The notes under the pieces: generated by a model | Database searches by the model: none | What the model saw: only the letters and a program-made list of their open reading frames with translations | What the model was told of the DNA's origin: nothing | Program-made: the position numbers and the translations under genes | Origin: Catajapyx aquilonaris | Lineage: Eukaryota | NCBI GenBank assembly: GCA_000934665.2 | Contig: KZ538085.1 | Location: 62,001-126,000, forward strand | Direction: 5' to 3' | Length of the DNA stretch: 64,000 nt | Part shown: positions 41,159 through 42,590 of the stretch, piece by piece | Layout of the letters: each line of letters begins with the position of its first letter | Numbering within the stretch: position 1 is the first letter of the stretch

Positions 41159-42590
41159 ATGGCGGACCAGGTAAGGAATGGCGAGGCTTCCTTTTCTCTT
41201 CTTTTGCCTAATTTAGGGCCACTTTTGCCTCGATTCCGACGGGGATTGATCCGGCCCGATTTGGAGCATGGAAATTCCATCGAAAATTATAATGAAAGGG
41301 GGGGGAATTAGGCTGGAGGGACGGAAGTAATGGTAATAAGAAAATGTGGGCGAAAATTTAGCTGCCTGATTAATATTTGGCTCAACTTTTAACGTTCTGG
41401 AATAATTAGTCCACGCTACATGAGTGCAGACTGGTTTTACTTGCGCAGGGCAACAATGTTGCGGGAGTGCGACGTAACAATGTTTGTTTCTCTTCCAACA
41501 GACGGAGAAGTCGTTCCAGAAGCAGCCGCAGATCAACCTGAACAGGAGGCCATGGCTTAAGAAGAAGCCTACTCGATATGTTAAGAAGGTTGGACTTGGA
41601 TTCAAGGCGCCCCGAGAGGTAATTATCACGTTTACTTGGCCGAAAATGCAAGTTGTTAGGAAGGAAGTGGCAAAGTGATGAATAACACACGATGTTCTTA
41701 TGAACCGTACATGAAAGACTTCCGCTTAGTACTGATTGCCTCTTTCCTTCCGCTCGTATACTATCAGCACATTAAAAAGCATGCGAAAGAATCTGGAATA
41801 ATGTGCTGATTTAGGAAAAGTGAGCGAAAATTTCGTATCAATTATTGCTTTGACGTTACTAGCCAAATTGGTGCGATTACATGCGAGCGATTTGACGAGC
41901 GAAGTCATCACAGAGGCTGAAATTTTCGCCTCAAACAATATTGTTTACTTACGGTATGTAGCCTAAGCGATGATTTCGCGTGTAAAATTGCTCACATGTA
42001 AACGCCGCTTTATGCCTAATGTAAATCCCTGGTTTTTTTTAAAGGCGATGGAGGGCACCTACATCGACAAGAAGTGTCCGTTTACCGGCAATGTGTCGAT
42101 TCGTGGACGCATCCTGACTGGAACGGTGGTGAAGATGAAGATGCAGCGTACTATTGTAATCCGTCGAGACTACTTGCATTACATCCGCAAGTACAAGCGC
42201 TTCGAGAAACGGCATAAGAACATGTCCGTGCATCTCTCGCCTTGCTTCAGGTGAGAACACTATGCGAATTTGGTTTGTTGCAGCAAAAGTTTTGGGATTG
42301 AACATCAGTATGTAGGTGGCTGCTGCTAATGACGAGAATGCACGACGGTCTTCTGAACCGAATGTGAACGATTGCGTTTATTCTGAAGCAGCCTAACGTT
42401 TCGCTTTCGTTATTAAGACGCTTGTAGCTGAATGTTCGTCTCATTGTTGTAATCTATCTATTACAGGGATGTGTCCGTTGGAGATATCGTGACCGTTGGC
42501 GAATGTCGGCCATTGAGCAAAACTGTTCGCTTCAATGTGCTCAAAGTGACAAAGGCCGGTGGGGCAAAGAAGAGCTTCAAGAAGTTCTGA
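41159..42590 (+). CDS. RPS11: 40S ribosomal protein S11 (uS17)
   Basis: Exons 41159-41170, 41502-41618, 42045-42250, 42467-42590. [88 protein letters not shown]. Confidence 0.98.
41669..41740 (+). ncRNA. Box C/D snoRNA in RPS11 intron 2 (U35 paralog with a D-guide to the 5' region of 28S)
   Basis: Terminal stem GGCAA/TTGCC, extendable with GGAAGG/CCTTCC. C box GTGATGA 41675-41681; D box CTGA 41732-41735. D-guide CTTCCGCTTAGTA is complementary to LSU UAAGCGGAGG. Confidence 0.82.
42318..42393 (+). ncRNA. SNORD35: Box C/D snoRNA U35/SNORD35 (yeast snR73 equivalent) in RPS11 intron 3
   Basis: Stem GGCTGCT/AGCAGCC. C-like ATGACGA 42329-42335; D' CTGA 42353-42356; D CTGA 42383-42386. Guide CACGACGGTCT is complementary to conserved 28S AGACCGUCGUG, and its fifth nucleotide pairs with the first C. 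Vertebrate RPS11 hosts SNORD35B. Confidence 0.85.

Follow-up and report, generated by a model that had tools for sequence, protein, structure and literature searches.

A U35-lineage box C/D snoRNA in an RPS11 intron of Catajapyx aquilonaris appears to have lost its conserved guide and may be directed to the 5' end of 28S rRNA

The window analysed here (the whole stretch of 64,000 nucleotides from Catajapyx aquilonaris contig KZ538085.1, positions 62,001 to 126,000 of the forward strand) contains the gene RPS11, two introns of which each hold a small nucleolar RNA (snoRNA) of the box C/D class. In members of this class a terminal stem holds the C box (RUGAUGA), close to the 5' end, next to the D box (CUGA), close to the 3' end; the RNAs measure 60–100 nt and are intronic in animals. 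We refer to the RNA of intron 2 as snoRNA A and to that of intron 3 as snoRNA B; both are box C/D snoRNAs at the positions given in the initial annotation of this DNA, and every feature described there was present. A C/D scan of both strands revealed a third RNA absent from that annotation, snoRNA C, which lies 2.4 kb from the RPS11 pair on the opposite strand, within an intron (44716-45105) of the neighbouring gene, a membrane-protein gene whose exons match Tmemb_40 (PF10160) at E 5e-22. All three RNAs have the boxes of the class, terminal stems of 5, 7 and 6 bp and lengths of 72, 76 and 86 nt, respectively, and all are intronic (Table 1). B and C carry an intact D' guide of the U35 type. In A this guide is disabled, and the D guide is complementary to a conserved motif at the 5' end of large-subunit (LSU) rRNA.

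The exons of RPS11, reconstructed from the window, join into a spliced frame of 459 nt that encodes 152 aa of RPS11 sequence, and exon 3 is 75–94% identical to 80 metagenomic RPS11 loci. One contig of X1, a public sequencing run consisting of contigs only (kind of run unstated, share 0.21), bridges 42247 to 42464 over a GT..AG intron, confirming RPS11 intron 3. Another X1 contig, of 177 nt, corresponds to 41613-41789 with zero differences, indicating that the T at 41695 and the ATGA box of snoRNA A are real and no assembly error. Because this contig begins in exon 2 and extends beyond the snoRNA, it is not the mature RNA; B is covered by no X1 contig, and the X1 contigs carry no inference on the expression of either A or B.

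Table 1 Coordinates of RPS11 and of the three snoRNAs in the window (MFE, minimum free energy)
Feature	Position	Strand	Basis or remark
RPS11 host gene	41159..42590	+	four coding exons: 41159-41170, 41502-41618, 42045-42250, 42467-42590
RPS11 intron 2	41619-42044	+	exon reconstruction
RPS11 intron 3	42251-42466	+	exon reconstruction
snoRNA A, 72 nt	41669-41740	+	RPS11 intron 2; box C/D anatomy
A, external stem, 9 bp	41659..41751	+	GGAAGGAAG (41659-41667) with CTTTCCTTCC (41742-41751)
A, terminal stem GGCAA/TTGCC, 5 bp	ends of 41669-41740	+	present in MFE fold
A, C box GTGATGA	41675-41681	+	sequence reading
A, D' guide CACGATGTTCTT, U35-type, disabled	41688-41699	+	T at 41695
A, D' box ATGA	41700-41703	+	sequence reading
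A, D guide CTTCCGCTTAGTA, 13 nt	41719-41731	+	occupies entire C'-D spacer
A, D box CTGA	41732-41735	+	sequence reading
snoRNA B, 76 nt	42318-42393	+	RPS11 intron 3; box C/D anatomy
B, terminal stem GGCTGCT/AGCAGCC, 7 bp	ends of 42318-42393	+	present in MFE fold
B, C box ATGACGA	42329-42335	+	sequence reading
B, D' guide CACGACGGTCTT, intact U35-type	42341-42352	+	G at +5
B, D' box CTGA	42353-42356	+	sequence reading
B, D guide GATTGCGTTTATT, no known target	42370-42382	+	sequence reading
B, D box CTGA	42383-42386	+	sequence reading
snoRNA C, 86 nt, third U35-type copy	44785-44870	-	C/D scan of both strands
C, terminal stem TGGCGA/TCGCCA, 6 bp	ends of 44785-44870	-	sequence reading
C, C box GTGATGA	44857-44863	-	sequence reading
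C, D' guide TACGACGGTCTT, G at +5	44842-44853	-	sequence reading
C, D' box CTGA	44838-44841	-	sequence reading
C, D guide AACCCATTCCAGTT	44795-44808	-	sequence reading
C, D box CTGA	44791-44794	-	sequence reading

U35-type guides carry a G five bases upstream of the D' box. Judged by the consensus guides of SNORD35 and sn3071, B and C have this G. The D' guide of B is identical over 12 nt to that of sn3071 (CACGACGGUCUUC), which we take to be a nematode snoRNA, and differs from that of SNORD35 at a single, wobble-compatible position, where it has C for U, in agreement with the initial description of B as the bearer of a U35-type guide. The likeness to sn3071 is one of the guide, since B as a whole scores 17.6 bits against a gathering threshold of 40. 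The base at 41695, the fifth upstream of the D' box of A, is T where B has G, and the box itself reads ATGA; both changes had been noted initially, and the X1 contig agrees with the assembly at each of them. The D' domain of A thus contains three changes within 16 nt, while its C box, D box, terminal stem and external stem are all kept, and the external pairing GGAAGGAAG/CUUUCCUUCC prolongs the terminal stem. With its flanks (41652-41762), A folds at a minimum free energy of -26.4 kcal/mol, which 10 of 200 shuffled sequences equalled; the fold of B has -25 kcal/mol (z = -2.6). The base at +5 supports the view that the D' domain of A has become disabled there.

The nucleotide addressed by guides of the U35 type is a universally conserved 2'-O-methylated C of 28S rRNA, entered as human Cm4506 (SNORD35A/B), yeast Cm2959 (snR73), Arabidopsis Cm2960 (U35) and fly Cm3491 (FBgn0083988 and FBgn0083989) in the available portion of a six-species compilation (PMC11014333). 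According to the same portion, fly RpS11 hosts snoRNA:Me28S-C3420a (CD58a) and Me28S-C3420b (CD58b), of 86 nt each and ~480 bp apart, both flagged 'HOS', which we take to mean expressed, and both with Cm3491 as the only site listed there (PMC11014333). Human SNORD35B likewise lies in an RPS11 intron, as stated in the accessible text of PMC10347780. These two cases uphold the view of RPS11 as a U35 host on which the initial annotation had built: human, fly and this arthropod share U35 copies in RPS11 as an old and conserved feature, and the occurrence of such copies as a pair is an already known arrangement, not a new one. Judged by their coordinates and entries in that compilation, the fly RNAs resemble A and B as two U35-type C/D snoRNAs in two RpS11 introns with the conserved Cm as target. 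They differ in that both fly copies keep the U35 guide, whereas here the intron-2 copy has lost it and carries a guide to the LSU 5' end, a comparison made through annotation and not sequence. B and C share with SNORD35A/B and snR73, as those are described in the same sources, the core of the D' guide and the target C, and SNORD35B also the host gene. Outside the boxes and the guide, however, their sequences are unlike SNORD35, and A has no functional guide of this type.

We next compared the RNAs of the window with one another. In a global alignment of A and B, 50 of 68 aligned positions are identical (74%, z = 7.8), a value reached by none of 5000 shuffles that kept the boxes. A block of 20 nt with 17 matches was equalled by one of 2000 shuffles, and the likeness is not confined to this middle block but includes the spacer and the D-guide region. 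As judged from these alignments A and B are clearly paralogues, in keeping with the duplication proposed at the outset. A and C have the 5' stem and the C-box region in common, and their stems, GGCAA/TTGCC and GGCGA/TCGCC, are related by a compensatory change from A-T to G-C.

At gathering score, Rfam matched nothing in the whole 64-kb window. At a relaxed threshold, A matched snoR16 and snR60/Z15 (22.3 bits each), with SNORD35 absent among its listed matches; B matched SNORD79 (23.0 bits), sn3071 (17.6 bits) and SNORD35 (16.4 bits); and C matched SNORD35 (20.2 bits, E 0.03) and snoZ221/R21b (22.9 bits, E 0.009, gathering 44), all of these scores lying below gathering, which for SNORD35 is 36 bits. 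With every score below gathering, we name A, B and C U35-type by guide and synteny and not as members of the Rfam family SNORD35; residence in an RPS11 intron, typical of the U35 family, applies to A and B, and C has another host. Taken together, the three RNAs very probably belong to the U35 lineage of C/D snoRNAs. The D guide of C (44795-44808, minus strand) has the core ACCCAUU in common with the consensus of plant snoZ221/R21b, and on this resemblance C may be a double guide.

A broader view of the family was obtained from metagenome contigs. A scan with the RPS11 exon-3 peptide returned 591 stretches, 469 of them encoding a relative, and the best 80 loci were used, ~22 of which are intronless or complementary DNA (cDNA). 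U35-type guides on the coding strand, in introns flanking exon 3, were present at 12 of the 80 loci in a total of 22 copies, with a copy on each side of the exon at 7 loci. G stands at +5 in every one of the 22 copies, and the D' box is CTGA in 20 of them, indicating that the T at +5 and the ATGA box of A are derived. Their D guides differ between lineages, and D guides thus turn over in the U35-type family. In the introns of 30 intron-bearing loci that lack a U35 match, no convincing C/D snoRNA was found. A parallel scan of genome_contigs gave 6 short RPS11 loci; the sequences inspected, those of L081-L083, have the look of spliced cDNA, and a scan of viral_contigs for RPS11 loci gave none. 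One AT-rich metagenomic locus, L007 (the same in L008), has U35-type snoRNAs at 2380, 2782 and 3358, one before exon 3 and two after it, with all three U35 guides intact and three different D guides; it is a case of further local U35 amplification.

The D guide of A was then set against the LSU 5' end. Pairing was computed against the Rfam LSU consensus and against a foreign LSU sequence, a contig from viral_contigs (L088) that matches positions 1-103 of Rfam LSU_rRNA_eukarya with 102 bits. As the initial annotation had reported, the D guide of A and the conserved LSU 5' motif UAAGCGGAGG are complementary, with 10 bp, one of them G-U, on the invariant core. The guide pairs at 12 of its 13 positions with the Rfam consensus and at all 13 (2 G-U) with the foreign LSU, where the duplex reaches -18.5 kcal/mol and none of 2000 shuffled guides did as well. 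Control guides, namely the D guides of B and C and the D' guides of A and B, gave -3.8 to -7.1 kcal/mol on the same LSU 5' end. On both strands of the window, this is the sole match of at least 10 bp to the LSU core that adjoins any CTGA. The complementary stretch takes up the C'-D spacer from end to end, and its target is universally conserved. In the LSU model the target reads U47 A48 A49 G50 c51 G52 G53 A54 G55 G56 (UAAGcGGAGG), in which C24-U29 forms a helix with A49-G53 and G55. Opposite the +5 base of the guide stands A48, which is the first A of UAAGCGG and the final unpaired nucleotide on the 5' side of the AGCGG-G/CCCGCU helix. If A is active, its D guide would methylate 28S A48, a prediction that we consider to have about an even chance of being correct.

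Three other sequences with a resemblance to this guide, its target or its product were set aside. Contig L087 matches the LSU motif and was ruled out because it is not rRNA. The 15-mer TCCGCTTAGTACTGA has 6 matches in viral_contigs, none of them with a C box or a terminal stem, and these are attributed to chance. The FlyBase entry 'Me28S-A30', considered as a fly counterpart, is an annotation that has been deleted, shows no expression and refers to another position.

A similar guide is known from plants. Plant snoR16 guides 25S Um48 in Arabidopsis, as reported in the accessible part of PMC8053127, and Um48 is recorded in tomato, tobacco and an alga in the available text of PMC11542601. The D guide of snoR16 (RF00296) has the core UCCGCUUA, as does that of A, and is directed to the same LSU 5' stretch, plant Um48 corresponding to U47 of the LSU model. 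The two differ in that the D box of A stands one base closer to the core, so that the +5 position falls on the A that lies 3' of the U addressed by snoR16. A is not a member of the snoR16 family (22.3 bits, E 1.2, gathering 45; +5 on A and not on U), and because the remainder of A is U35-like, its guide is convergent with that of snoR16 rather than homologous to it. That snoR16 guides Um48 in plants also indicates that this LSU 5' stretch is accessible to a C/D small nucleolar ribonucleoprotein (snoRNP).

These observations can be combined into the following explanation. A and B in RPS11 introns 2 and 3, and C in the Tmemb_40 gene, would descend from one lineage, that of U35, SNORD35, snR73 and Me28S-C3420. 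B and C, with G five bases upstream of CUGA, would direct fibrillarin to 2'-O-methylate the conserved 28S C. Redundancy with these two would have left A free to lose its U35 specificity through G>U at +5 and CUGA>AUGA in the D' box, while its perfect C and D boxes, terminal stem and external stem would still allow it to assemble a snoRNP. Its 13-nt D guide would pair with the conserved LSU 5' motif (N)NNUAAGCGGAGG, and the D+5 rule would then place a methyl group on the first A of UAAGCGG, Rfam LSU position 48, one nucleotide 3' of plant Um48. On this account A would be processed and stable, the species' own 28S would contain the motif with flanks that pair, and A48 would be methylated. As a whole, we regard this best explanation, U35 loss permitted by redundancy together with a guide to the LSU 5' end, as evenly poised between right and wrong. 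The narrower proposition of an animal LSU Am (2'-O-methyl-A) on the first A of the UAAGCGGAGG motif, ~48 nt from the 28S 5' end, installed by a retargeted U35 paralogue and convergent with plant snoR16, is put forward more tentatively. It would concern a region listed as methylated in green plants and algae alone in the compilations consulted, and would make the locus a clean natural case of a snoRNA exchanging guides after duplication, the second guide having taken over once the original one had died.

Several results weigh against this explanation, and some of them would be expected if A were an orphan or slowly decaying paralogue whose match to LSU is coincidental and which brings about no methylation at the 28S 5' end. 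Taken without the species' own rRNA, the certain pairing is the 10-bp core only, and by our own estimate a chance match of 10 bp somewhere in ~6.5 kb of rRNA is expected for roughly 4–10% of guides. Rfam at gathering score assigns A to no family. A guide to the LSU 5' end was found in none of the 22 U35-type copies at the 12 loci and in no RPS11 intron of the 80 related loci, so that no orthologue with this guide appears among them; other pairings of at least 9 bp occurred at 5 of the 80 loci, all on the purine-rich AAAAGAAAC part of the LSU motif. The nearest locus is ~82% identical within exon 3 only and has no similarity in the introns. 2'-O-methylated nucleotides (Nm) in the LSU 5' region are listed for Arabidopsis only (Um44 and Um48) in the available portion of the six-species compilation, which has none there for fly, human, yeast, Xenopus or Dictyostelium and gives Gm789 as the first Nm site of fly 28S (PMC11014333). 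From the same portion, 31 of 75 Drosophila sites predicted by snoRNA complementarity are unmethylated (PMC11014333). Our literature search yielded no usable Nm map for mosquito or other arthropods. The D guides of B and C are without a known target as well, orphan guides thus being normal in this family. An orphan A is a substantial possibility, if somewhat short of an even one. It accounts less readily for the retention of the C box, the D box, the 5-bp terminal stem and the 9-bp external stem while the D' domain took three changes in 16 nt, for a pairing that fills the C'-D spacer on a universally conserved stretch methylated in plants, and for the failure of all 2000 shuffled guides to equal the pairing with the LSU 5' end.

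The position of the target within a conserved helix suggests a further reading, in which A would bind the 5' end of pre-28S and help it to assemble or fold, keeping the AGCGG strand free until it pairs with CCCGCU, or would methylate a neighbouring nucleotide. The target strand is one arm of this helix in the Rfam consensus structure, and for some plant guides methylation at positions 5 and 6 is noted in the accessible part of PMC8053127. No positive evidence points to either role, and the guide adjoins a canonical D box at methylation spacing; we consider this reading very improbable.

In the search for A-like guides among the related loci, one candidate was rejected: the guide CTCCTTCCGCTACTGA at L061 precedes the start of the gene, and its 'CCCGATGTTCTT' arises from coding sequence when this is read backwards, so that the resemblance is due to chance.

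The route by which A came to its present guides was weighed separately. The initial annotation had envisaged an ancestor with two guides, the U35 guide at D' and the LSU-5' guide at D, that was duplicated within RPS11 and lost one guide in each copy, a course of duplication, degeneration and complementation. The loss of the U35 guide in A stands, but reciprocal loss proved too strong a description: a third copy, C, has an intact U35 guide. B and C, being intact, cover the U35 function twice over, so that the loss in A needs neither a reciprocal partner nor complementation by B. A similarity over the whole length of A and B, compatible with a duplication or gene conversion of fairly recent date, would suit such an ancestor, as would the alignment of their D-guide regions (GACTTCCGCTTAGTA and GA-TTGCGTTTA-TT, with 8 of 11 aligned bases identical), in which the D guide of B could be a decayed LSU-5' guide. 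This identity nevertheless equals the 74% of the pair overall, and since it does not rise above the A/B background, the direction of change is unreadable and decay in B is indistinguishable from gain in A. The double-guide form itself was not borne out. It occurs in none of the 22 copies at 12 related RPS11 loci, the D guide of C is unrelated, and the available portion of the compilation gives only Cm3491 for fly CD58a/b (PMC11014333). We consider a double-guide ancestor unlikely. Under the explanation preferred here, in which redundancy released A, the LSU-5' guide is either older than the split of A and B and was lost in B, or a later gain in A, and it looks lineage-specific.

What would be new at this locus is the retargeted copy A with its specific predicted site. 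If the prediction holds, a ribose methylation would be added in domain I of animal 28S, beside a site that is regarded as confined to the green lineage. The locus would also provide a dated, locus-level example of C/D paralogues changing their target, with three copies of which one is retargeted. The practical value is modest and consists of a concrete site at which to inspect RiboMeth-seq or nanopore data from this arthropod or its relatives.

Further features were observed within RPS11 intron 2. Directly 3' of snoRNA A, the plus strand at 41745-41828 forms a hairpin whose 12-bp stem (ATCAGCACATTA/TAATGTGCTGAT) is perfect and which folds at -23.8 kcal/mol (z = -3.1). It matches mir-15 (RF00455) at 24.6 bits (E 0.003), below the gathering score of 57.3 and hence outside the family, and could be an intronic microRNA-like hairpin or a mere inverted repeat. 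In the same intron, 41870-42005 (plus strand) is matched by many X1 contigs (depth 10-44) at less than ~90% identity, which then diverge into unrelated sequence; this segment looks like a dispersed repeat or a transposon fragment.

Elsewhere in the window, the plus strand at 13987-14050 contains another C/D-like candidate (ATGATGA ... CTGA, with a 5-bp stem AAAAT/ATTTT) whose Rfam matches are weak (SNORD18, 15.6 bits; snoZ43, 15.3 bits). The sole N of the window is at 14354. A geranylgeranyl-transferase exon has its best matches, at only ~60% identity, in cockroach, scorpion and dragonfly, which together with the peritrophin-A genes described next indicates an arthropod that has no near relative among sequenced species. 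Three long open frames, at 22390-25356 (plus strand), 31778-34249 (plus strand) and 35103-37460 (minus strand), each start with a peritrophin-A domain (CBM_14, E 1e-8 to 2e-11), followed by ~750-950 aa without a Pfam match, and look like a cluster of mucin-like peritrophins.

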